Origin: Patescibacteria group bacterium
GTDB lineage: Bacteria > Patescibacteriota > Patescibacteriia > Patescibacteriales > UBA12465
Direction of reading: 5' to 3'
DNA: 64,000 bases
NCBI GenBank assembly: GCA_041651095.1
Contig: JBAZJV010000003.1
Span: 80,293-144,292, forward strand
Shown: positions 2,550 through 44,216 of the stretch, piece by piece
Numbering within the stretch: the stretch's first letter is position 1
Layout of the letters: every line of letters begins with the position of its first letter
Translations under genes and position numbers: made by a program
Notes under the pieces: generated by a model
The model's database searches: none
What the model saw: the letters and a program-made list of their open reading frames with translations, nothing else
What the model was told of the DNA's origin: nothing

Positions 2550-5057
2550 TTATTTCAAATAGGGCTTTAAATATTTACCGGTAAAACTGGCGGGTTCCCG
2601 GGCGACGTCTTCGGGGGCGCCGGCCGCCACCAAGCGGCCGCCCGCTTCCCCGCCGTCCGGGCCGAGATCGATCAGATAATCCATCGCCTTGAGCATATGC
2701 ATATTGTGCTCGATGACCAAAACGGAATTGCCTTTTTCTACCAGTCTATTAAGCACGCCGAGCAATAGGTCGATGTCGTAATAATGCAGGCCGGTGGTCG
2801 GTTCGTCCAGCAGATAGAGCGTCCGTTTGCCCAAGGTATGGGTAAGCTCCTTGGCGATCTTGATGCGCTGGGCTTCACCGCCGGAGAGGGTCGTAGCGCT
2901 CTGGCCGATCTTGAGATAGCCGAGGCCGACCGAAGCCAGGACTTTCAATTTGTCGGTTATCAGATAATTCCCTTCGAAATGTTCGATTGCTTCGTCAATG
3001 GTCAGATCCAGGATTTCCGCGATATTTTTCCCCTTGTATTTTACTTGCAGGGTTTCCCGGTTGAACCGTTTGCCGCGGCAGACTTCGCACTCGACCAGCA
3101 CCGGCGGCAGAAAATGCATCTCAATCAGATTGGCGCCGGCGCCCTCGCAGGCTTCGCAGCGGCCGCCGGCACGATTGAAGGAAAAGCGGCCGATATTATA
3201 GCCTCTTTCCCGCGATTCAGGCAGGGCGGCAAAAAAATCGCGGATCGGCGTGAAGATGCCGGTGTAAGTCGCCGGATTGGAACGCGGCGTCCGGCCGATA
3301 GGCGACTGATCGATTACGACGATTCGGTTGATATATTCCAAGCCCTTGACCTCCTTGACTTCTTCTAATTTGTTCTTGCCCGGGTGATTCTTCAGATAGC
3401 TCACATTCTTATAGATTACATCATAGAGCAACGACGATTTGCCGCTGCCGGAGACGCCGCTGATGCCGACCAGGCGGCCTAGGGGGATATCGATATTTAG
3501 GTTTTTCAAGTTATTGGCGTGCGCGCCGCGCAGCCGCAAGGTCCCGTGGTTCTGTTCCCGGCGTTTGCTCGGCAAGGCGATGTCCTTCAGGCCGCTGAGG
3601 TATTGCAGGGTCAGGGATTTTTTCATCAGCGCCTTGTTCTTCTTGTCGCTCAGCAGATCCTTGGTTTCACCGCTGGCCACCACTTCCCCGCCGTGCACGC
3701 CGGCCAGCGGCCCGAGGTCGACCAGATAATCGGAAGATAAGATGGTCCGTTCGTCATGCTCGACGATAATGACCGTATTATTCTTGTCCCGCAATTTCTG
3801 CAAGGTCTCGATCAGGCGTTCGGTGTCCCGCTCATGCAAACCGATGGTCGGTTCGTCGAGCACGTACAGCGTGCGTGACAGATGCGAGCCGATCTGCGAG
3901 GATAAGCGTATCCGTTGGGCTTCACCGCCGGAAAGAGTTTCCGCCTCCCGGTCCAGAGAGATATAATGCAGGCCGACTTTCAGCAGGAATTCCAGACGGC
4001 TGATCACCTGGACGACCACGTTTTCCGCGATCGCCAGCTGACGTTTGGTCATCTTTTCATAATAATGATTGAAGAAGTCCAGGGACCGGTTGATCGGCAA
4101 AGCGCTGACTTCGGCGATATTCTTATTGTTTATCCGCACGGCCAAGGCTTCCGGCCGCAAGCGCCGTCCCCGACAGACCGGGCATTTTTCGTCGGAAAAG
4201 AAATCAGTCCGTCCCAGGCCGGTGCATTCCGGACAGGCGCCATGCGGTGAATTGAAGGAAAACAGCCGCGGCTCCACTTCCGGGAATGAGAAATTATCAT
4301 TCGGGCAGGTCCAATTGGCCGAGAGCAGGAATTCCCGGTCCTGATATTTGGCGATGACTAATCCCTTGCTGTAGTCCAGGGAATTCTCAATCGCTTCGAA
4401 CAGCCGGGTCTGGTCGCTCAGCAGTATCTTATCGATGACGATATCGATATCATGCTTCTGTTTCGGAGCCAGCTTGACGGTTTCGCGCAACGAGTGGACC
4501 TTGCCGTCGATGCGCGATTCGCTGTAGCCGAGGCCTAGGTAATTATAGAGCAGTTGGTAATATTCGCCTTTGCGATCGCGGACGACCGGCGACAAAATCG
4601 TGACATATTCCTCTCCCTGTTCCTGGCCGCGATTGATGACGATATCAACCATCTCTTCCACGGTCAGCTTTTCGATCTTGGTGCCGCAGACCGGGCAATA
4701 GACCTCGCCGATCCGGGCGTAAAGGACGCGCAGATAATCATAGATTTCGGTCAAGGTGCCGACCGTGGAACGCGGATTATGCGACAGGGCTTTCTGGTCA
4801 ATAGAAATGGACGGCGCCAAACCGACGATTTCATCGACATCGGCCGGTTTCTTCTGACCCAGGAATTGGCGCATATAGGGCGAGAGCGACTCCACGTATT
4901 GCCGCTGCCCTTCGGCGAAGATCGTATCGAAAGCCAACGACGATTTGCCGCTGCCGGAGACGCCGGTGATGACCGTCAATTTATTATGCGGTATTTCCAG
5001 GTCGATATTCTTTAAGTTATGCATCCGCGCGCCGCGAATGATCAGTTTTTCAGACAT
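2550..5057 (-). CDS. uvrA: excinuclease ABC subunit A (835 aa, insertion domain absent)
   Basis: GVSGSGKSSLAFDTIFAEGQRQYVESLS; two ABC modules (LSGGEAQR x2, Walker A GVSGSGKSSL x2); zinc modules CPVCG and ACPECTGLG...CPVCRG. Confidence 0.95.
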   Translation of the reverse strand: MSEKLIIRGARMHNLKNIDLEIPHNKLTVITGVSGSGKSSLAFDTIFAEGQRQYVESLSPYMRQFLGQKKPADVDEIVGLAPSISIDQKALSHNPRSTVGTLTEIYDYLRVLYARIGEVYCPVCGTKIEKLTVEEMVDIVINRGQEQGEEYVTILSPVVRDRKGEYYQLLYNYLGLGYSESRIDGKVHSLRETVKLAPKQKHDIDIVIDKILLSDQTRLFEAIENSLDYSKGLVIAKYQDREFLLSANWTCPNDNFSFPEVEPRLFSFNSPHGACPECTGLGRTDFFSDEKCPVCRGRRLRPEALAVRINNKNIAEVSALPINRSLDFFNHYYEKMTKRQLAIAENVVVQVISRLEFLLKVGLHYISLDREAETLSGGEAQRIRLSSQIGSHLSRTLYVLDEPTIGLHERDTERLIETLQKLRDKNNTVIIVEHDERTILSSDYLVDLGPLAGVHGGEVVASGETKDLLSDKKNKALMKKSLTLQYLSGLKDIALPSKRREQNHGTLRLRGAHANNLKNLNIDIPLGRLVGISGVSGSGKSSLLYDVIYKNVSYLKNHPGKNKLEEVKEVKGLEYINRIVVIDQSPIGRTPRSNPATYTGIFTPIRDFFAALPESRERGYNIGRFSFNRAGGRCEACEGAGANLIEMHFLPPVLVECEVCRGKRFNRETLQVKYKGKNIAEILDLTIDEAIEHFEGNYLITDKLKVLASVGLGYLKIGQSATTLSGGEAQRIKIAKELTHTLGKRTLYLLDEPTTGLHYYDIDLLLGVLNRLVEKGNSVLVIEHNMHMLKAMDYLIDLGPDGGEAGGRLVAAGAPEDVAREPASFTGKYLKPYLK

Positions 5058-17267: not shown

Positions 17268-17296
17268 TTGCCCCTTTATACTGTATATGGTATAAT
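17268..17296 (+). promoter_or_regulatory. candidate nrdAB promoter
   Basis: TTGCCC (17268-73), N17, TATAAT (17291-96). Confidence 0.45.
17278..17293. promoter_or_regulatory. NrdR-box-like site 1 (weaker)
   Basis: ATACTGTATATGGTAT matches about 11/16 of the acaCwAtATaTwGtgt consensus as I recall it. Overlaps the -10 and spacer. Confidence 0.3.
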
Positions 17297-17310: not shown

Positions 17311-17326
17311 ACACTATATATAGAAA
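17311..17326. promoter_or_regulatory. NrdR-box-like site 2
   Basis: ACACTATATATAGAAA matches 13/16 of the recalled NrdR-box consensus. Centre lies about 33 bp from site 1. Confidence 0.4.
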
Positions 17327-17364: not shown

Positions 17365-19929
17365 ATGTCACTGACCATAGTTAAGATAGACGGCAAAAAA
17401 GAACCGTTCGACGCCGACAAGATCAATCAGGCCATTGCGGTCGCTTCGGCTGGATTGCCGGATCAAGAGGCTAAGATTACTCAAATCGCCACGGAAACCA
17501 GCCTAACCCTGTATGACGGCATCACGACCACGGAACTGGATAACGCGGTCATCAACGCCACGGTCCAGAATATCAAAGATGACCCGGATTTCGACATTAT
17601 TGCCGCTCGGTTGCTCTTAAAAATCATTTATAAGGAAGTTTTGGGCGATTTCCGGAATGACGACGACTTGCGGCAGAAGCATCGCGATGGTTTTGCCGCT
17701 TATGTGAAGCGCGGTCAGGACGAAAAGATCTTGTCTCCGGATTTACAGGTCTTTGATCTGGACCGCCTGGCCGATGCCCTGGATCTCCGCCGCGACTCTT
17801 TACTAACCTATACCGGCTTATCAACCATGCGCAGCCGCTATCTGATCAAGAACGCCGCTCAGAAGCTGCAGGAAACGCCGCAATATTTCTGGATGCGCAT
17901 CGCGATGGGTATGGCCAGCCGGGAAAAAGCAGCGACCGAAACCGCCATCCGTTTCTATAATAAGATGTCCAAGCTGGAATATGTAGCTGGCGGTTCCACC
18001 AATATCAATGCCGGCACGACTTCGCCGCGCCTGAGCAATTGTTTTTTGATGGACATGGAAGACAATATCGGCCATATCGGAAAAACCGTCGCCGACGTGA
18101 TGAAGCTGTCCAAAGCGACCGGCGGCATCGGCCTGGCTGTCACCAAGTTGCGCGCCAACGGTTCGCCGATTTCTACCAACAATACCTTTTCTTCCGGGCC
18201 GATCCCTTTTTTGCATATCATCGATTCCACCATCCGGGCGATCTCTCGCGCCGGCAAGAAGATGGGCGCGCTCTGTTTCTATATGGAAAATTGGCATATT
18301 GATTTTCAGGATTTTTTGGATTTGAAGCAGAATGCCGGCGATGATTACCGCCGGGCCCGAACCGCCAACATCGCGGCCTGGATTTCCGACGAATTCATGA
18401 AACGGGTCAAGAACAAGGACAGCTGGTATTTATTCGATCCCAATGACGTGCCGGACCTGGTTGATCTCTACGGCGAGGCTTTTTCCAAGCGTTACAATGA
18501 ATATGTGGCTATGGCGGAAGCCGGCCAGATGCGAATCTTTAAGAAAATCCCGGCGACCGAGCAGTTCAATAATATGATCGTTTCCCTGCAGGGCACTTCC
18601 CATCCCTGGCTGACCTGGAAAGACGCCGCCAACGTCCGGGCGCTTAACAATAACACCGGCACTATCCATAGTTCCAATCTCTGCACGGAAATCACCTTAC
18701 CGGCCGATAAGGACAACGTCGCGGTCTGCAATTTGATGTCGATAAATTTATCGCGCCATCTGACGCCGGAGAAAGAGGTAGACTGGGAACTGCTCAAAGA
18801 AAGCGTCCGGACCGGCGTCCGGCAACTGGATAACCTGGTCGATATCAATCAGCCGCCGATTCCGGAGGCCGGCAACTCGGACCATAATAACCGGGCGGTC
18901 GGCATGGGCGTTATGGGTCTGGCCGATATGTTTGAAAGGCTTAATATCGCTTATGACAGCCAGGCTGCTTACGACCTAAGCGACCAAATCATGGAGTTTA
19001 TCAGCTACCAGGCCATCGGCGCCAGCGCCGACCTGGCGGCGGAAAAAGGCAGCTATGCCAATTTCGCCGGTTCCGGCTGGTCCAAAGGACTGGTTCCTTA
19101 TGACACGTTGGCGATTTGGGAAAATGATCGCGGCGAGAAACTGACGGTGGACCGAACGGCCCGTTTAGATTGGGAATCGCTCCGCGCCAAGGTCAAGCGC
19201 GGCATGCGCAACGCTACCCTGCTGGCCATCGCTCCGACCGCGAATATCGGACTGATCGCCGGCACTTCGACCGGCATCGACCCGCGCTTTGCTCAGATTT
19301 TCAGCCGCAACACCCTATCCGGCAAATATCTGGAATTGAATTTCAATCTGGTTGAAAAATTAAAGAAACTGGGCATCTGGGAAAGCAAGCGCGAGGAAAT
19401 CCTGATCGCGCAAGGAGACCTGACCGATATCGACGGCATTCCGGAAGAAATCAAGAAGATATATAAGGATTCTTTCTCGGTCCAGCCGGCCGCTTTCGTG
19501 GAAGTAGCCGCGCGCGCCCAGAAATGGGTCGATCAGGCGATAAGCCGCAACATGTATCTGGCCACCCGCGATACGGAGGAAATCATGCAAATCTATCTGG
19601 GTGCCTGGGAAAAGGGCCTAAAAACTACGTATTATCTGCATATGAAACCGCGCCATACGGCCGAACAGAGCACCATTAAGGTTAATAAGTCAGTCAGCGT
19701 CGGTAAAAAAGGTTTCGGCGCCATCCTGGCTGATAAAGCCGCATCAGGGCTGGTCAATATTCCGGTGCCGGAGAAAGTGCCGGCCGCTCAACCGCTGAAC
19801 AAGGCGCCGGAAATAGCGGTCTCAACGGATATGGCGGCCGATCAATTACCTTTGAACCAGGAATTTAAAATCGGGCAGTCTTGCCCCGTGGATCCGCAGG
19901 AGCGGCTCTTATGCGACAGCTGCCAGTAA
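17365..19929 (+). CDS. nrdA: class I ribonucleoside-diphosphate reductase alpha subunit (one ATP-cone)
   Basis: ATP-cone (VKIDGKKEPFDADKI), active site SNLCTEI, radical-transfer pair TTYYLH, C-terminal redox pair CDSCQ. Confidence 0.92.
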   Translation: MSLTIVKIDGKKEPFDADKINQAIAVASAGLPDQEAKITQIATETSLTLYDGITTTELDNAVINATVQNIKDDPDFDIIAARLLLKIIYKEVLGDFRNDDDLRQKHRDGFAAYVKRGQDEKILSPDLQVFDLDRLADALDLRRDSLLTYTGLSTMRSRYLIKNAAQKLQETPQYFWMRIAMGMASREKAATETAIRFYNKMSKLEYVAGGSTNINAGTTSPRLSNCFLMDMEDNIGHIGKTVADVMKLSKATGGIGLAVTKLRANGSPISTNNTFSSGPIPFLHIIDSTIRAISRAGKKMGALCFYMENWHIDFQDFLDLKQNAGDDYRRARTANIAAWISDEFMKRVKNKDSWYLFDPNDVPDLVDLYGEAFSKRYNEYVAMAEAGQMRIFKKIPATEQFNNMIVSLQGTSHPWLTWKDAANVRALNNNTGTIHSSNLCTEITLPADKDNVAVCNLMSINLSRHLTPEKEVDWELLKESVRTGVRQLDNLVDINQPPIPEAGNSDHNNRAVGMGVMGLADMFERLNIAYDSQAAYDLSDQIMEFISYQAIGASADLAAEKGSYANFAGSGWSKGLVPYDTLAIWENDRGEKLTVDRTARLDWESLRAKVKRGMRNATLLAIAPTANIGLIAGTSTGIDPRFAQIFSRNTLSGKYLELNFNLVEKLKKLGIWESKREEILIAQGDLTDIDGIPEEIKKIYKDSFSVQPAAFVEVAARAQKWVDQAISRNMYLATRDTEEIMQIYLGAWEKGLKTTYYLHMKPRHTAEQSTIKVNKSVSVGKKGFGAILADKAASGLVNIPVPEKVPAAQPLNKAPEIAVSTDMAADQLPLNQEFKIGQSCPVDPQERLLCDSCQ

Positions 19930-19957: not shown

Positions 19958-20956
19958 ATGATATTAGGCAAACCACTGAATGAAGACATGAATCTGCGCC
20001 CCATAAGATACCAATGGGCCTACGATTTATATAATCAGGCCGTCGCCAATACCTGGTTTCCACATGAGATAGCTTTAGGCGAAGATCTGGAAGACTGGAA
20101 AAAGATGACCGAAGACGAACGCCACGCCGTCAGCTTCCTGATGAGCTTTTTCAATCCCTCGGAGCTGATCGTCAACCGGACCCTGGCTTTAGGCGTCTAT
20201 CCTTATATCAAGGCGCCGGAAGCGCACCTTTATCTGGCTAAGCAGATGTGGGAAGAGGCCAATCACTGCGTTTCTTTCGAATATGTGCTTGAGACTTTTC
20301 CGGTCGACCGCAAGAAGATCTTCCAGCAGCATCTGGAAACCCCCTCCATCAAGGCTAAGGAAGACTTTATCACCAATTATCTGACGCGGATGACGGAAAA
20401 CAGCCTGGATGTCACGACCGAGGCCGGCAAAAAAGATTTCGTCCGCAATCTGGTCGCCTATAATATCGTCATGGAGGGCATCTGGTTCTATAGCGGCTTC
20501 ATGGTGGCGCTCAGCTTCCGGCAGCGGCGGCAATTGCGCAATTTTGGCTCGCTCATCGACTGGGTCCTGCGCGACGAAAGCCTGCACCTGAAATTCGGCA
20601 TCAATCTGATCCTGACTATCTTGGAAGAAAATCCGGAGATCGTCACGCCCGAATTCAGCGCGGAAATCCAGAAAATCATCATCGACGGGGTCAATTTGGA
20701 AAATGCCTATAATCAGGACATGTTCCCGCGCGGCATCCTGGGCTTGAACGCTAATTACGTCAATCAATACGTCCAGTATGTCGCCGACCGCCGCCTGGAA
20801 GAATTAGGCTTCGAGCCGCATTTCAAGGTAACTAATCCGGCCAAATGGATGGCGGCGGCGACGGACACCCTGGAACTGGTCAATTTCTTCGAAACCCAAA
20901 ATACCAACTACGAAGTTGACGGCCGCGCGCATAAGGAGTTAAATAAGAGTGAGTAG
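19958..20956 (+). CDS. nrdB: class I ribonucleotide reductase beta subunit, class Ic-like (Phe at the radical-Tyr position)
   Basis: Ferritin-like ligand set E69, E100-x2-H103, E173, E207-x2-H210. F107 occupies the H+4 position. C-terminal ...NTNYEVD tail. Confidence 0.88.
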   Translation: MILGKPLNEDMNLRPIRYQWAYDLYNQAVANTWFPHEIALGEDLEDWKKMTEDERHAVSFLMSFFNPSELIVNRTLALGVYPYIKAPEAHLYLAKQMWEEANHCVSFEYVLETFPVDRKKIFQQHLETPSIKAKEDFITNYLTRMTENSLDVTTEAGKKDFVRNLVAYNIVMEGIWFYSGFMVALSFRQRRQLRNFGSLIDWVLRDESLHLKFGINLILTILEENPEIVTPEFSAEIQKIIIDGVNLENAYNQDMFPRGILGLNANYVNQYVQYVADRRLEELGFEPHFKVTNPAKWMAAATDTLELVNFFETQNTNYEVDGRAHKELNKSE

Positions 20957-20975: not shown

Positions 20976-21890
20976 ATGTACGACACTATCGTCATCGGCG
21001 GCGGCATGGCCGGCCTGGCCGCGGCTTTGTATGCCAAAAGGCGGGAAATGAAAACCTTGCTCTTGAGCCGGGATATCGGCGGGCAGATCGGTTTGGCCGG
21101 CGACATTGAGAATTATTTGGGCTTTGATCTGATTACCGGCCTGGAATTGAATGAGCGCCTGGAAAAACAAGCGAAATATACCGGTTATGACATAAATTTG
21201 GAAACAGTCACCAAGATCGCGCACGACGGCCAAAATTTCAGCGTGACTACGGATAAAGCCGGTTATGAATCCAAGACCGTCATCTTCGCGCTGGGCCTGG
21301 TTCCTCGCTATCTGGGCGTGCCGGGCGAAAAGGAATTCGCCGGCAAAGGGGTCTCTTACTGCGCCAACTGCGACGGCCAATTCTTCAAAGGACAGCGCCT
21401 GATCGTCGTCGGCGGCGGCAATTCGGCTCTGGATGCCGCCGAAGTCCTGTCCAAGATCGGCTCGGAAGTGCATCTGGTCCACCGGAGCGCTACCTTCAAA
21501 GCCTTTGAAAGCCTGGTCAGTGAGGTTAAGCAGCGATCGAACATCAAGATCCATCTGGATTCGGAGGTAATCAAGATAAACGGCGACACCAAGGTAAAAA
21601 GCGCCACTCTCCGGCATAATCCGGACGGGGCGACCGAAGAATTGCCGATAGACGGCATTTTCGTGGAAATCGGACACAAGGCGCAAAGCGATCTGGTCGC
21701 CGGCCTGGTCAAATTAGACGCGGCTAATCAGATAATCGTCAACGAGCATTGCGAAACCAGCCAGCCGGGCTTGTTCGCGGCTGGCGATATCACGCAGGTG
21801 GAGCATAAGCAGCTCACGGTCGCGGCTGGTCAAGGCACGATTGCCGCTTTAAACGCTTATAAATACGTCCGCCAATTAGCGGGCAAATAG
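20976..21890 (+). CDS. trxB: thioredoxin-disulfide reductase
   Basis: GGGMAGLAAALYA FAD motif, redox CANC in YCANCDG, second dinucleotide motif VVGGGNSA. Confidence 0.9.
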   Translation: MYDTIVIGGGMAGLAAALYAKRREMKTLLLSRDIGGQIGLAGDIENYLGFDLITGLELNERLEKQAKYTGYDINLETVTKIAHDGQNFSVTTDKAGYESKTVIFALGLVPRYLGVPGEKEFAGKGVSYCANCDGQFFKGQRLIVVGGGNSALDAAEVLSKIGSEVHLVHRSATFKAFESLVSEVKQRSNIKIHLDSEVIKINGDTKVKSATLRHNPDGATEELPIDGIFVEIGHKAQSDLVAGLVKLDAANQIIVNEHCETSQPGLFAAGDITQVEHKQLTVAAGQGTIAALNAYKYVRQLAGK

Positions 21891-22259
21891 TTAAGCTTTA
21901 GCTTTTTTAATCGCTTTTTGGATAGTGGAGAGACCGAGCATGGCGCATTTATAGCGTCGCTCGCTGATTGGAACGCCGAGGAGGCTCTGGATAGTCTTAA
22001 AATCCATAGCCAAGACGGCGTTTTTGGTTTTGCCGACCAATGCTTCGGTCAGAATAGATATGGCGGCTTGGGAAATAGCGCAGCCATGGCCCTGGAAACT
22101 CAAGGCTTTTATTTTTTGGCCGCTGAATTGCAAGGCCACCATCAAATCATCGCCGCAGCTGGCGTTGCTGCCCCGTTCGGTAGCATCGGCCGCCGGCAAC
22201 GGCTCTTTATGCCGCGGGTGCTTATAGTGATCCAGGATGTTTTGCGCGTAGATATCCAT
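21891..22259 (-). CDS. sufU: SUF-system Fe-S scaffold/sulfur acceptor SufU (NifU/IscU-like)
   Basis: NASCGDD, GHGCAIS, YKCAML conserved Cys motifs. Confidence 0.85.
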   Translation of the reverse strand: MDIYAQNILDHYKHPRHKEPLPAADATERGSNASCGDDLMVALQFSGQKIKALSFQGHGCAISQAAISILTEALVGKTKNAVLAMDFKTIQSLLGVPISERRYKCAMLGLSTIQKAIKKAKA

Positions 22260-22264
22260 AACGC

Positions 22265-23470
22265 TTATTTGAATGCCTGATGCAGCTCTTTTAGCTTTTT
22301 AATAAAATAATCGATTTCCGTCCGAGTATTATAGAAGCTGAGGCTGGCGCGCAGCGTAGCCGGGACGCCGTAATGGTCATGTATCGGCTGGGCGCAATGC
22401 CGGCCGGGACGCAGAATAATGCCTTCGCTGCCCAGGAGATCGGCCGCATCATGCGGATGGATTCCATCTATGACCATGGCAAAGACCGGCAATTTAGGCT
22501 TTGCCGTTCCCAAGATTCGGACGAACGGCAAAACTTTTATCCGGCGCAAAAAATAATTCGTCAATTCCCGTTCCGTTTTGATAATGGTGGGCCAGCCTAT
22601 TTTATTGACATAACGCACCGCTTCGCCCAGGCCGATGGCGGCGGCAATGTCCGGAGTACCAGCTTCAAATTTATAAGGCAATTCATTAGTAGTGAAATGG
22701 TCAATATAGACAGTATCGATCATATCGCCGCCGCCCATGAAAGGCGGCATCTTGGCCAGAATTTCCCGGCGGCCATAAAGTACGCCGCTGCCGGTCGGTC
22801 CCCAGAGCTTATGCCCGGAAAAGACCAAGAAGTCGCAATCCAGGCGGCGGACATCTATAGGTCGATGCGTAGCGCTCTGAGCGGCATCGACGAGCGTCAT
22901 AATGCCTTTAGATTTAGCTAGGCGGATGAGCTTTGACAAATCATAAAATATGCCCAAGACATTAGAAGCCTGGGTGATAGACAATAATTTTACCCGGGGA
23001 CGACGAAGCAACTCTTGAGCGGCAGCTAAATCCAGCGAGCCGTCGATCTTTACTGGTATGTAGGCTAATTTGAAACCGATCTTATCCTCTAATTGCAGCC
23101 AGGGGACCAGATTGGCGTGGTGTTCGGCTAGACTTAAGACGACCGTATCGCCTTTCTTTAGATTAGTCTCCCCCCAGGTCCGGGCGACTAAATTTACCCC
23201 CTCGGTCGCTCCTCTGGTAAAGATGATCTCTTCCCGGCGGGCGCCGATGAATCTGGCAACCGCTTCCCTGGCCGCTTCATAGCGACCGGTCGCTTCTTCC
23301 GCCAGCGGGTTGAAGCCGCGATGGACGTTGGTATTGTATTTTCTGTAAAAGTCGCTGACCGCCCGGATAACGCTCATCGGTTTCTGGGCGCTCGAGGCGT
23401 TATCAAAATAGACCAGCGGGCGGCCGGCGATTTTCTTTTTTAGTATTGGGAAATCACTGCGACGGATCAT
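22265..23470 (-). CDS. sufS: cysteine desulfurase SufS
   Basis: HHANLVPW, PLP lysine in SGHKLWGPTG, active-site RPGRHCAQP. Confidence 0.92.
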   Translation of the reverse strand: MIRRSDFPILKKKIAGRPLVYFDNASSAQKPMSVIRAVSDFYRKYNTNVHRGFNPLAEEATGRYEAAREAVARFIGARREEIIFTRGATEGVNLVARTWGETNLKKGDTVVLSLAEHHANLVPWLQLEDKIGFKLAYIPVKIDGSLDLAAAQELLRRPRVKLLSITQASNVLGIFYDLSKLIRLAKSKGIMTLVDAAQSATHRPIDVRRLDCDFLVFSGHKLWGPTGSGVLYGRREILAKMPPFMGGGDMIDTVYIDHFTTNELPYKFEAGTPDIAAAIGLGEAVRYVNKIGWPTIIKTERELTNYFLRRIKVLPFVRILGTAKPKLPVFAMVIDGIHPHDAADLLGSEGIILRPGRHCAQPIHDHYGVPATLRASLSFYNTRTEIDYFIKKLKELHQAFK

Positions 23471-23475
23471 AAAGT

Positions 23476-24231
23476 TTATTTTTTTGCAGCCGCCCGTTCT
23501 TCGACTAGCTGGCTGATGCGCTCTCTGGCTGAAACATCCTTAATCCCCGCGGTAAAGCGTTGGGCCAAAGAACTGATGACCAGCCGTCTAATTTGTTTCT
23601 CGGTCAGGCCGCGGCTTTGCAGATAGAATAAGTCATCCGGCGCTAACTGGAAAGTGCTGGCGCCATGTCTGGCCTTGACTTCGTTGGCGTCTATCTTCAG
23701 GCTGGGCAAAAGATTGCCCTTAGCCTCCCGGCTCAGCAGGTATAAACGCATGTCGATACGTGAATCTGTCAGCTGGGCCTCTGGTTTAATGACCAGTTCA
23801 GAATAATACTGAGGAGCGGCTTGGTTTTCCGCCAGGCCGGTAACCAGAAAATGACCGTTAGTGCCGCGATCGGAGAATATATAGTCATCCTGGACCCGCA
23901 GTTCCTGCCGGCCGGTTTGGTAGAACAGGACGTGATTATTAAAGACGGCCCGGGCGGCCATAATTTGCTTGATTTGAATATCCAAATTACCGGTCCCGAA
24001 ATAAGCCTGATAGGCGCTGACTTGAGCGTCTTCACCGATATTTATGATTCGGGATTGTCGGAAATCGCCGGCGGGATCGCAGATGCTCACATATTGGACG
24101 CGCGCCTTTTTGGCGATGTTTATTTCTATGGCCGGTGAAGCGGTTTCGCCGATATGATCGAATAAAAAAATTTCCGAACGGGCGGGTATATTGATGATCT
24201 GATCAGTGCTGTTGACGGTTATGATTTTCAT
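23476..24231 (-). CDS. sufD: SufD-like Fe-S assembly protein, short form (251 aa)
   Basis: C-terminal SufB/D motif ANEVKARHGASTFQLAPDDLFYLQSRGL. Position between sufB and sufS. Confidence 0.7.
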   Translation of the reverse strand: MKIITVNSTDQIINIPARSEIFLFDHIGETASPAIEINIAKKARVQYVSICDPAGDFRQSRIINIGEDAQVSAYQAYFGTGNLDIQIKQIMAARAVFNNHVLFYQTGRQELRVQDDYIFSDRGTNGHFLVTGLAENQAAPQYYSELVIKPEAQLTDSRIDMRLYLLSREAKGNLLPSLKIDANEVKARHGASTFQLAPDDLFYLQSRGLTEKQIRRLVISSLAQRFTAGIKDVSARERISQLVEERAAAKK

Positions 24232-24239
24232 AGGTTTAC

Positions 24240-25658
24240 TTAGCCGACGCTGCCTTCCATTTCCAATTCCACCATCCGATTCATTTCGACGGCATATTCC
24301 AAAGGCAATTCTTTGACGATCGGTTCGATGAAGCCGTTGACGATCATAGCCCCGGCCTGGGCTTCGCTCAAGCCGCGGCTGCGGAGGTAGAAAATATCTT
24401 CATCATTGAGCTTGCCGGCCGTCGCTTCATGGGCCAGGACGGCCGTGGCATTCTTGATTTTGATCATCGGGATAGTGTCGGAGGCGGAATGTTCGTCCAA
24501 AATCAGGGCGTCGCATTTGATGTTTGACGTCGCCCCTTCGGCTTTGGGACCGATATCGACCAGGCCGCGGTAAACGGCCCGGCCGCCTGATTTGCTGATG
24601 CTTTTCATGACGATATTGGAACTGGTCTGAGGTGCGACGTGGATGACTTTGGCGCCGGTATCCTGGATCTGGCCTTCGTTAGCGAACGCGACCCCCAGAT
24701 GATCGGCAGTGGCGCCTTCGCCCATCAGGACTGAGCAAGGATAAAGCATGGTCACGTTGCTGCCAAAGTTGCCGCCGACCCATTCCATATGGGCGCCGGC
24801 CTGGACCATGGCCCGCTTGGTATTGAGATTATAGGCGTCCTTGCTCCAGCTCTCCACGCTGCTGTAGCGGAACCGGGCGCCTTTAGCCACAAATATCTCC
24901 ACGCCGCCGGCATGCAGAGAATCGATGCCGTAACGCGGCGCGCTGCAGCCTTCGATATAATGAGCCTGGGCGTCTTCTTCAACGATGATGAGGGTATGCT
25001 CAAACTGCCCCATCCCTTTAGCGTTCATGCGGAAATACGCCTGGAGCGGCAACTCGATCTTGACGCCCTTGGGAATATACAGGAAGGTGCCGCCGCTCCA
25101 GACCGCGCCGTGCAGCGCGGCGAATTTATGGAGCGTCGGCGGAATGCACTGTTGCATGAAATATGGTTTGACCAAATCGCCGTGTTCGCGCACGGCGACG
25201 TCCATATCCTCGAAAATGACGCCTTGGCGCCGGAATTTCTCTTTCAGGCTATGATAAATGACGGTAGACTCATATTGCGCTCCGACCCCGGCTAAGACTT
25301 CCTGCTCAGCCTGCGGAATACCCAGGCGATCAAAAGTCTTCTTGATATCGGCCGGGACGTCATCCCAGGTCTGGCTCTGCTTATCGGTCGCTTTGGCATA
25401 ATAAGTTATCCGCTCCAAATCCAACTTGGTCAAATCCGGCCCCCAGGCCGGCAAAGACATTTGCTGGTAGATCTTCAGGGCGGCCAGCCGGCGTTCCAGC
25501 ATCCAGGCCGGTTCCTGTTTCTCGCGTGAAATCAGGCGGACCAGATCTTCATCAAGACCGACCCGGGTGCGCGACATATACGACGCTTCGTTATAAGCAT
25601 CCCACATCGAACTGTGGGCCGTAATTTTTTTCGATTTTTTCCCTTTTAGATTGCCCAT
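24240..25658 (-). CDS. sufB: Fe-S cluster assembly protein SufB
   Basis: Typical SufB sequence throughout (...AHEATAGKLNDEDIFYLRSRGL...). Confidence 0.92.
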   Translation of the reverse strand: MGNLKGKKSKKITAHSSMWDAYNEASYMSRTRVGLDEDLVRLISREKQEPAWMLERRLAALKIYQQMSLPAWGPDLTKLDLERITYYAKATDKQSQTWDDVPADIKKTFDRLGIPQAEQEVLAGVGAQYESTVIYHSLKEKFRRQGVIFEDMDVAVREHGDLVKPYFMQQCIPPTLHKFAALHGAVWSGGTFLYIPKGVKIELPLQAYFRMNAKGMGQFEHTLIIVEEDAQAHYIEGCSAPRYGIDSLHAGGVEIFVAKGARFRYSSVESWSKDAYNLNTKRAMVQAGAHMEWVGGNFGSNVTMLYPCSVLMGEGATADHLGVAFANEGQIQDTGAKVIHVAPQTSSNIVMKSISKSGGRAVYRGLVDIGPKAEGATSNIKCDALILDEHSASDTIPMIKIKNATAVLAHEATAGKLNDEDIFYLRSRGLSEAQAGAMIVNGFIEPIVKELPLEYAVEMNRMVELEMEGSVG

Positions 25659-25660
25659 AT

Positions 25661-26422
25661 TCAGCCGGCTGCCTGGCGGCGGATTAATTTTTCAAAGCCT
25701 TCTTTTTCCAGGCGCTGAGCCAAGCTGTGGCTGCCGGTTTTGACGATTCGGCCTTGCGACATGACTACGACCTTATCCGGCTGTATCTGCTCTAAGATCC
25801 TTAGGTAGTGAGTGACGATGAGGGCGCTGGTTTTGGTTTTCTTGAATCGTTTCATGGCCCGGCCGACTACTTTCAGGGCGTCGACATCCAGGCCGGAATC
25901 GATCTCGTCGAAGATGGCGAACGACGGCTTAAACAAAGCAAGCTGCAGCATTTCCGCTTTTTTCTTCTCGCCGCCGGAAAATCCCTTGTTCAAATACCGC
26001 CGGCTCCAGTCATCTTGTATTTTTAAGGCCGCCGCTTCCTGATCCAGCATTTTTTTAAAATCAAAGACTGTCGCCGCCGGGCTTTGGCGCGCCGCCTGGA
26101 TGGATTTGTAAGCATCGAACAGATAAGGGTAAAAATCAATACCTTCGATTTCCCGCGGTTGCTGGAAGGTCATGAATAAACCCAGGGCCGCCCGTTCCTC
26201 CGGCTTCTTGTCGGTGATTTCCTGGCCGCGAAAAAAAATCCGGCCCCCGGTGACTTGATAGGCGGGGTGCCCCATGAGGACGCTCGAGAGCGTGGACTTG
26301 CCGGAACCGTTCGGTCCCATGACCACGCAGACTTCCCCTTCTTTGATGGTCAGGTTGATCTCTTTCAAGATCGGCTGGTCTCCGATACTGACCTGCAAGT
26401 CTTTGATTTCCAAGACATTCAT
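25661..26422 (-). CDS. sufC: Fe-S cluster assembly ATPase SufC
   Basis: GPNGSGKSTL, FSGGEKKKAEMLQL, FAIFDEIDSGLD. Confidence 0.92.
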   Translation of the reverse strand: MNVLEIKDLQVSIGDQPILKEINLTIKEGEVCVVMGPNGSGKSTLSSVLMGHPAYQVTGGRIFFRGQEITDKKPEERAALGLFMTFQQPREIEGIDFYPYLFDAYKSIQAARQSPAATVFDFKKMLDQEAAALKIQDDWSRRYLNKGFSGGEKKKAEMLQLALFKPSFAIFDEIDSGLDVDALKVVGRAMKRFKKTKTSALIVTHYLRILEQIQPDKVVVMSQGRIVKTGSHSLAQRLEKEGFEKLIRRQAAG

Positions 26423-44140: not shown

Positions 44141-44145
44141 TTTAG

Positions 44146-44216
44146 CTCGGGGACAGGGATTCGAACCCCGATAAACAGGACCAGAACCTGTTGTCCTACC
44201 GTTAGACGATCCCCGA
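44146..44216 (-). tRNA. tRNA-Gln (anticodon CUG)
   Basis: Hand-folded cloverleaf: acceptor UCGGGGA/UCCCCGA (U1-A72); D arm GUCU-AACGGUA-GGAC; anticodon arm ACAGG-UUCUGGU-CCUGU; T arm CGGGG-UUCGAAU-CCCUG; discriminator G. CCA is not encoded. Confidence 0.9.

Follow-up and report, generated by a model that had tools for sequence, protein, structure and literature searches.

A tyrosine-less ribonucleotide reductase beta subunit with a class Ic sequence signature in a Patescibacteria group bacterium

How does a class I ribonucleotide reductase (RNR) beta subunit store its oxidizing equivalent when phenylalanine occupies the position of the radical tyrosine? The question is raised by nrdB (positions 19958–20956, forward strand, ATG start, 332 residues), which lies in a 64,000-nucleotide stretch of contig JBAZJV010000003.1 (assembly GCA_041651095.1) from a Patescibacteria group bacterium; this whole stretch is referred to below as the window. 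The open reading frame list, HMMER searches, family models and fold comparison all identify the product as a class I RNR beta subunit, and a preliminary description had assigned it to class Ic, the Mn/Fe-dependent type without a radical tyrosine that is known from Chlamydia trachomatis. We conclude that the protein belongs by its sequence signature to the class Ic type. With a probability of about three in four, it would serve as the beta subunit that initiates the radical in a functional class I RNR, acting with the NrdA protein encoded just upstream and using, most probably, a Mn(IV)/Fe(III) cofactor.

The metal ligands and radical-transfer residues of NrdB were read by script from the forward-strand frame and matched by alignment to their counterparts in C. 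trachomatis R2. The first ligand is Glu69 (FNPSELIVN; codon GAG, 20162–20164; C. trachomatis E89), a position held by aspartate in classes Ia and Ib. Glu100 and His103 follow within WEEANHC, preceded by the second-sphere residue Glu99 (EEANH, 20252–20266; E119/E120/H123), then Glu173 within VMEGIWF (20474–20476; E193), and finally Glu207 and His210 within RDESLHL, preceded by the second-sphere residue Asp206 (DESLH, 20573–20587; D226/E227/H230). The radical-tyrosine position, equivalent to E. coli Y122 and C. trachomatis F127, is Phe107 (HCVSFEYVL), whose codon at 20276–20278 reads directly as TTC. Two further residues mark the electron path: Trp33 (20054–20056), the relay tryptophan corresponding to C. 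trachomatis W51, and Tyr318 (20909–20911), which lies in the disordered C-terminal tail, corresponds to C. trachomatis Y338 and E. coli Y356 and is the residue of inter-subunit radical transfer. The tail is conserved as NYEV(D/N)xRA, with the motif YEV(D/N)xRA conserved after Tyr318.

NrdB was compared with all Protein Data Bank (PDB) chains using phmmer. The C. trachomatis R2 structures 1SYY, 4D8F and 2ANI were the top matches (E values of 1.2e-81 to 3.3e-81), and 6Y2N came next at 1e-70. The best other beta subunit was that of C. botulinum (6ZJK, 1.6e-36), whereas E. coli class Ia matched at about 1e-18 and the class Id structures (6CWP and others) at about 5e-12. In the HMMER alignment of NrdB residues 12–319 with residues 30–339 of 1SYY there is a single gap, of two residues, before position 50, and a constant offset of +20 then relates all six ligands and Phe107 to E89, E120, H123, E193, E227, H230 and F127. 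The alignment contains its own control: 2ANI is the deposited F127Y mutant, and phenylalanine versus tyrosine at the column of Phe107 is the sole difference between 1SYY and 2ANI in the alignment shown. Five residues before E227, C. trachomatis R2 has Y222, which we take to be a member of an activation-specific electron relay; its place in NrdB is taken by Trp202, which is invariant among the close homologues. The ligand assignments of the preliminary description, the spacings of 31/3/70/34/3 that it had equated with those of the chlamydial enzyme, its reading of Phe107 and its glutamate as first ligand were thus all borne out, and the alignment to C. trachomatis R2 places neither a tyrosine at the radical site nor an aspartate at the first ligand. 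6Y2N is the R2 subunit of Saccharopolyspora erythraea, an R2c from the Hogbom group (PMC7467353).

Fold comparison gave the same ranking. An AlphaFold2 model of NrdB built from a 40-sequence alignment had a mean predicted local distance difference test score (pLDDT) of 89.2, with disorder (pLDDT <50) confined to the C-terminal tail at residues 305–332. When this model was searched against the PDB with Foldseek, ranks 1–13 were all C. trachomatis NrdB chains, among them the Mn/Fe-loaded structures 4M1I and 4D8F, with template-modelling (TM) scores of 0.84–0.87 and root-mean-square deviations of 1.3–2.0 Å; the best fold match is scored at TM 0.86. 6Y2N was rank 14 (TM 0.84), and class Ia proteins then followed with E values of about 1e-14. 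The top 14 structural matches are therefore all R2c proteins of C. trachomatis or S. erythraea, in agreement with the earlier expectation that NrdB would cluster neither with R2lox nor with class Ia. Besides the ligand set, the spacing and the phenylalanine, NrdB shares with C. trachomatis R2c the second-sphere Glu/Asp pair, the equivalents of W51 and Y338 and a short C-terminal tail; with the S. erythraea protein it shares the Glu/Phe signature, the ligands and the fold.

Assignment to a class was based on the published sequence rule, which is in routine use for calling class Ic (PMC6370689). Harrison et al. define the class Ic subgroup NrdBzc by the ligand series E-E-H-E-E-H together with a glutamate before ligand 2 and an aspartate before ligand 5 (PMC6370689, Table 4), and the residue at the tyrosine site in this subgroup is phenylalanine, leucine or valine (PMC6370689). 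NrdB follows this pattern throughout, with its six ligands, Glu99, Asp206 and Phe107, and its NrdA partner is closest to the NrdAz of P. aeruginosa, NrdAz being the alpha subunit of the RNRdb group NrdABz. The statement that the glutamate and the phenylalanine together define class Ic needs a qualification. A glutamate as first ligand is common to class Id (PMC6754362; PMC6370689, Table 4), which retains the tyrosine and has cysteine or serine at the second-sphere site; the phenylalanine, and not the glutamate, is therefore the discriminating substitution. Among family models, Pfam returned Ribonuc_red_sm only, and the cut-offs of two NCBIfam models for RNR beta subunits were passed (NF007186, 372 bits against 237; NF005550, 316 bits against 309). 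Classes Ia and Ib were rejected on both counts, since NrdB has glutamate and phenylalanine instead of aspartate and tyrosine and scored far below the class Ia model NF006576 (85 bits, cut-off 346) and the class Ib model TIGR04171 (102 bits, cut-off 355). Class Ie (NrdFe) was rejected as well: it has lost three carboxylate ligands, as Q/V, S/P and K, whereas NrdB keeps all of them.

The partner gene nrdA (17365–19929, forward strand) encodes a class I alpha subunit of 854 residues with Pfam ATP-cone, Ribonuc_red_lgN and Ribonuc_red_lgC matches, made up of a single N-terminal ATP-cone, an all-alpha domain and a barrel, and its stop codon lies 28 nt before the nrdB start. NrdA scored 1262 bits against NCBIfam NF005101 (cut-off 988), and its closest solved relative is the NrdAz-type P. 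aeruginosa NrdA 5IM3 (E = 1.5e-194). Its catalytic residues are complete: C226, N438/C440/E442, C455, Y756/Y757 and a C-terminal C850-x-x-C853. Among 83 related loci, nrdA stands directly before nrdB in 82, which upholds the description of a normal nrdA-nrdB pair and speaks strongly against an R2lox protein encoded by an orphan gene. The alpha subunit departs from the Chlamydia system in having one ATP-cone, and the Chlamydia-type alpha model NF009029 (1046 positions) aligns with it only from model position 237, at 720 bits against a cut-off of 1350. Separately, residues 6–10 of the ATP-cone (17380–17394) read VKIDG, compared with the canonical KRDG of most relatives; a motif of the type T/K-K-R-D-G occurs in about 40 of 69 loci, and isoleucine takes the place of the conserved arginine in this NrdA, as it does in a few relatives. 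Control of overall activity by dATP may therefore work differently or be absent.

NrdB belongs to a large family whose members carry the generic annotation RNR beta. The 120 best database matches are 76–93% identical to it, and those with names belong to metagenome-assembled genomes (MAGs) labelled Patescibacteria group, Falkowbacteria or Pacebacteria. Species-representative genomes were scanned as well, and at least 592 stretches in them encode a NrdB relative, the closest among the matches listed being that of Candidatus Falkowbacteria CG1_02_37_21 (92%). The best 80 stretches are nearly all from the Candidate Phyla Radiation (CPR): Falkowbacteria, Nomurabacteria, Staskawiczbacteria, Paceibacteria, Taylorbacteria, Zambryskibacteria and Jacksonbacteria. 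The complete Falkowbacteria chromosomes CP065010.1 and OZ173682.1 carry the same nrdA-nrdB pair. A signature of twelve residues (W33, E69, E99, E100, H103, F107, E173, W202, D206, E207, H210 and Y318) is identical in 83/83 related loci, and all twelve positions, including the second-sphere pair, are also invariant across 121 aligned sequences made up of NrdB and its 120 close homologues. These results place the window in a Falkowbacteria-like CPR bacterium and make its NrdB the standard version of the protein for the CPR. An exact protein look-up recovered only a 1.8-kb Logan contig from SRR8542065, which adds no gene context, and the exact sequence is already present in public assemblies. Among the papers searched, none pointed out a class Ic RNR in CPR or Patescibacteria. 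Some relatives may be interrupted. At one CPR locus (L027, 4001–5472) the nrdB match is spread over 1472 nt for 327 residues of the query, and many representative proteins of about 650 residues (range about 610–760) match the query in two stretches, a pattern that points to inteins or further kinds of insertion within the nrdB genes of some lineages.

The relation of this lineage to the characterized class Ic enzymes was examined with a HMMER search over 1.84 billion representatives, from which 75 full-length proteins of non-intein size (290–460 residues) were taken. Together with the query, C. trachomatis 1SYY and 6Y2N, all three of which are Glu/Phe, these gave 78 aligned rows. At the first ligand and the tyrosine site, Asp/Tyr was found in 39, Glu/Phe in 17 representatives (19 in the 78-row tally), Glu/Tyr in seven and Glu with valine, leucine or isoleucine in six; six were degenerate or had other residues. 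Pairwise BLAST identity of the query is 43% to C. trachomatis R2c and 37% to S. erythraea R2. The S. erythraea protein is 87% identical to a Bradyrhizobium-type NrdB (P0135) and 66% to the Asp/Tyr protein P0139, which comes from a gammaproteobacterial MAG.

A first neighbour-joining tree, computed from uncorrected BLOSUM distances with the degenerate sequences included, was noisy. It gave way to a tree from Kimura-corrected distances, bootstrapped 100 times, which is likewise the product of a distance method alone and is weak in its deep topology. The query and two representatives (P0121 and P0122) form a clade in 100/100 replicates, P0150 joins this tyrosine-free clade in 91/100, and nine representatives group as an all-Glu/Phe clade in about 63/100. 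C. trachomatis R2c groups with S. erythraea R2c and Asp/Tyr proteins and not with the query clade, the smallest clade holding the two enzymes including Asp/Tyr sequences in 93/100 replicates. By sequence comparison, the query lineage appears as a separate all-Glu/Phe clade and no close sister of the enzymes behind the Mn/Fe chemistry. Beta subunits resembling class Ic have been described before as common and as dispersed over the NrdAz/NrdAq part of the class I tree (Burnim et al. 2022), and the neighbour-joining picture agrees with that scatter. Apart from these lineages, the distant NrdB-like representatives P0167, P0181, P0206, P0227, P0230 and P0251 have degenerate ligands, with ligand and tyrosine columns such as S/G/H/I/E/V/Q, S/L/H/F/E/A/H and S/E/R/F/K/N/H, and may be R2 variants that bind no metal or lack catalytic activity.

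Sequence and predicted fold together show a complete dimetal site with no oxidizable residue at the radical position, and an intact radical-transfer path leads from it to a catalytically complete alpha subunit. By analogy with the class Ic cluster chemistry of assembly, activation and turnover (PMC8463856), NrdB would store its oxidizing equivalent on the metal cluster, most probably as Mn(IV)/Fe(III) with manganese in site 1 beside Phe107. The Mn(II)/Fe(II) form would react with O2, or with two molecules of H2O2, to give Mn(IV)/Fe(IV), and this intermediate would be reduced to the active Mn(IV)/Fe(III) state, probably through Trp33 and Trp202, the latter in place of C. trachomatis Y222. During turnover Mn(IV) would be reversibly reduced as the hole passes through Trp33 to Tyr318 of the flexible tail and on to Y756/Y757 and C440 of NrdA, where the nucleoside diphosphate would be reduced. 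The C-terminal CxxC of NrdA would then be re-reduced by a thioredoxin system, to which the product of the adjacent trxB gene may contribute.

Several observations weigh against carrying the Mn/Fe assignment over directly. The signature on which the preliminary description had called a class Ic protein of the Mn/Fe type holds; the Mn/Fe cofactor itself is a matter of homology with the C. trachomatis and S. erythraea R2c proteins, the only class Ic enzymes characterized, at 43% and 37% identity, and metal content cannot be read from a sequence. C. trachomatis R2c is 58% identical to P0139 and 50% identical to P0161, both of them Asp/Tyr proteins, and the smallest clade joining the query with C. 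trachomatis is tyrosine-free in only 23/100 replicates. From the tree and the identity to P0139 it follows that the tyrosine-less state may have arisen separately here, so the identity of the cofactor does not transfer automatically. The presumed activation relay residue Y222 of C. trachomatis is a tryptophan in the query. Finally, a site with glutamate as first ligand can hold Mn2(IV,III), as class Id illustrates (PMC6754362).

The alternative that survives best is a tyrosine-less beta subunit storing its oxidant on a homodinuclear cluster, either the Mn2(IV,III) form known from class Id or a high-valent Fe2 cluster, and we regard it as improbable. The class Id NrdBi proteins of F. johnsoniae, L. 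blandensis and F. ignava are Mn2-dependent, have a glutamate first ligand like that of the query, and use a metal-centred oxidant without a tyrosyl radical (PMC6754362). The separation of the query clade from that of C. trachomatis and S. erythraea points the same way, as does the known capacity of the R2c scaffold to mis-metallate (PMC8463856). The first ligand is the only feature in common, however: class Id keeps the tyrosine and has cysteine or serine before ligand 2, whereas the query has Phe107 and, as in NrdBzc, Glu99. Similarity to class Id structures is also slight (E values of about 1e-12 to 5e-12 compared with 1e-81 for C. trachomatis R2c). Class Id membership was rejected on the patterns at the ligands and the tyrosine site.

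A related proposal, held with similarly low expectation, concerns the lineage as a whole. The Patescibacteria-wide Glu/Phe clade, comprising the query, P0121 and P0122, invariant in at least 83 loci and with matches in at least 592 stretches of species-representative genomes, may be an independent tyrosine-less lineage and not a branch of the R2c group of Chlamydia and actinobacteria. Its high-valent cofactor may depart from that of Chlamydia in the metals it holds or in how it is activated, such as by a Trp202 relay or by the use of H2O2.

It is very unlikely that NrdB works like a class Ia protein in which another tyrosine carries a stable radical beside a diiron site. The obvious candidate is Tyr109, two residues past Phe107, and it is invariant in the close homologues. 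It aligns, however, with C. trachomatis Y129 and is present also in the C. trachomatis and S. erythraea R2c proteins that have no tyrosyl radical, and the first ligand is glutamate rather than aspartate. The idea that NrdB is a ligand-binding oxidase of the R2lox type, or an R2 paralogue without catalytic function, is effectively refuted: although R2lox proteins are also Mn/Fe-containing and lack the radical tyrosine, and R2lox models do match weakly, those NCBIfam models score 32–84 bits against cut-offs of 194–346 and cover NrdB only to about residue 240 (NF006200, 84.2 against 194; NF006198, 57.8 against 274; other R2lox models lower), no R2lox structure is among the top 50 Foldseek matches in the PDB, the six ligands are intact, the tail with Tyr318 is conserved and nrdB follows nrdA in 82/83 loci, whereas an R2lox gene would be expected to stand alone and to encode no R1-binding tail. 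A class Ic-type beta subunit with, most probably, a Mn(IV)/Fe(III) cluster remains the preferred reading.

Downstream of nrdB lies trxB (20976–21890, forward strand), which encodes a thioredoxin-reductase-like flavoprotein of 304 residues with a CANC redox motif; the protein matches Pfam Pyr_redox_2 and reaches 322.7 bits with TIGR01292, just short of the cut-off of 343.45. The gene starts 19 nt past the nrdB stop, as stated in the preliminary description. As a conserved operon member trxB was rejected, since it follows nrdB in only 1/83 loci, that of the nearest Falkowbacteria relative (L005). The adjacency is incidental and local to the query genome and this relative, and it adds little support to the assignment, although its product could plausibly deliver reducing equivalents through thioredoxin. 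The redox motif is CANC rather than the more common CATC. The NADPH-binding motif of E. coli thioredoxin reductase is HRRxxxR; at this position the protein reads HRSATFK, and given this difference its cofactor preference may differ. Thioredoxin, NrdH/glutaredoxin and NrdR were not found in the window by a search limited to regular-expression motifs in six-frame open reading frames.

Upstream of nrdA, at a distance of about 40–90 nt, are two palindromes resembling NrdR boxes, ATACTGTATATGGTAT (17278–17293) and ACACTATATATAGAAA (17311–17326), both on the forward strand and spaced by 31–33 bp depending on register. The chance expectation for one match with three mismatches is 0.28 over the window. 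Falkowbacteria CP065010 has a comparable pair ahead of its nrdA (L002, about 3141–3188). When up to four mismatches are allowed, such a pair precedes nrdA in only 8/69 related loci, and five others show a single box. The two boxes in the window remain candidate operators only.

In two other regions of the window, genes were named by eye. A suf-like Fe-S assembly cluster on the reverse strand (21891–26422) converges on trxB and contains genes resembling SufU/IscU (21891–22259), the cysteine desulfurase SufS (22265–23470), SufD, SufB and SufC. Farther along, the segment 38100–44220 has a GC content of 0.35–0.41, compared with about 0.52 elsewhere in the window, and ends at a tRNA-Gln(CTG) gene (44145–44216). 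Its reverse-strand open reading frames resemble an HNH protein, two NUDIX proteins, a nitroreductase, a GyrI-like protein, a VOC/glyoxalase protein, an ArsM-like S-adenosylmethionine (SAM) methyltransferase and a small toxin-like protein. This segment is probably a horizontally acquired island at the tRNA gene.

No new mechanism is revealed by this locus, class Ic-like beta subunits of the NrdAz/NrdAq clades having been recognized before. What changes is the labelling: this gene, and with it hundreds of Patescibacteria genes that bear the generic name 'RNR subunit beta', can be called tyrosine-less class Ic type. If so labelled, ultra-small bacteria of minimal metabolism are predicted to require both manganese and iron, as well as O2 or H2O2, for making DNA precursors. 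No member of the clade has been characterized, which lends it modest value as a third, distant lineage, at 43% identity to the C. trachomatis protein, in which the generality of the Mn(IV)/Fe(III) solution could be assessed. It is also a hint that these bacteria need O2 or peroxide to make their dNTPs. Should the lineage prove to be an independent one, an RNR activated by O2 or peroxide would be the standard source of dNTPs in a radiation usually called fermentative and anaerobic.

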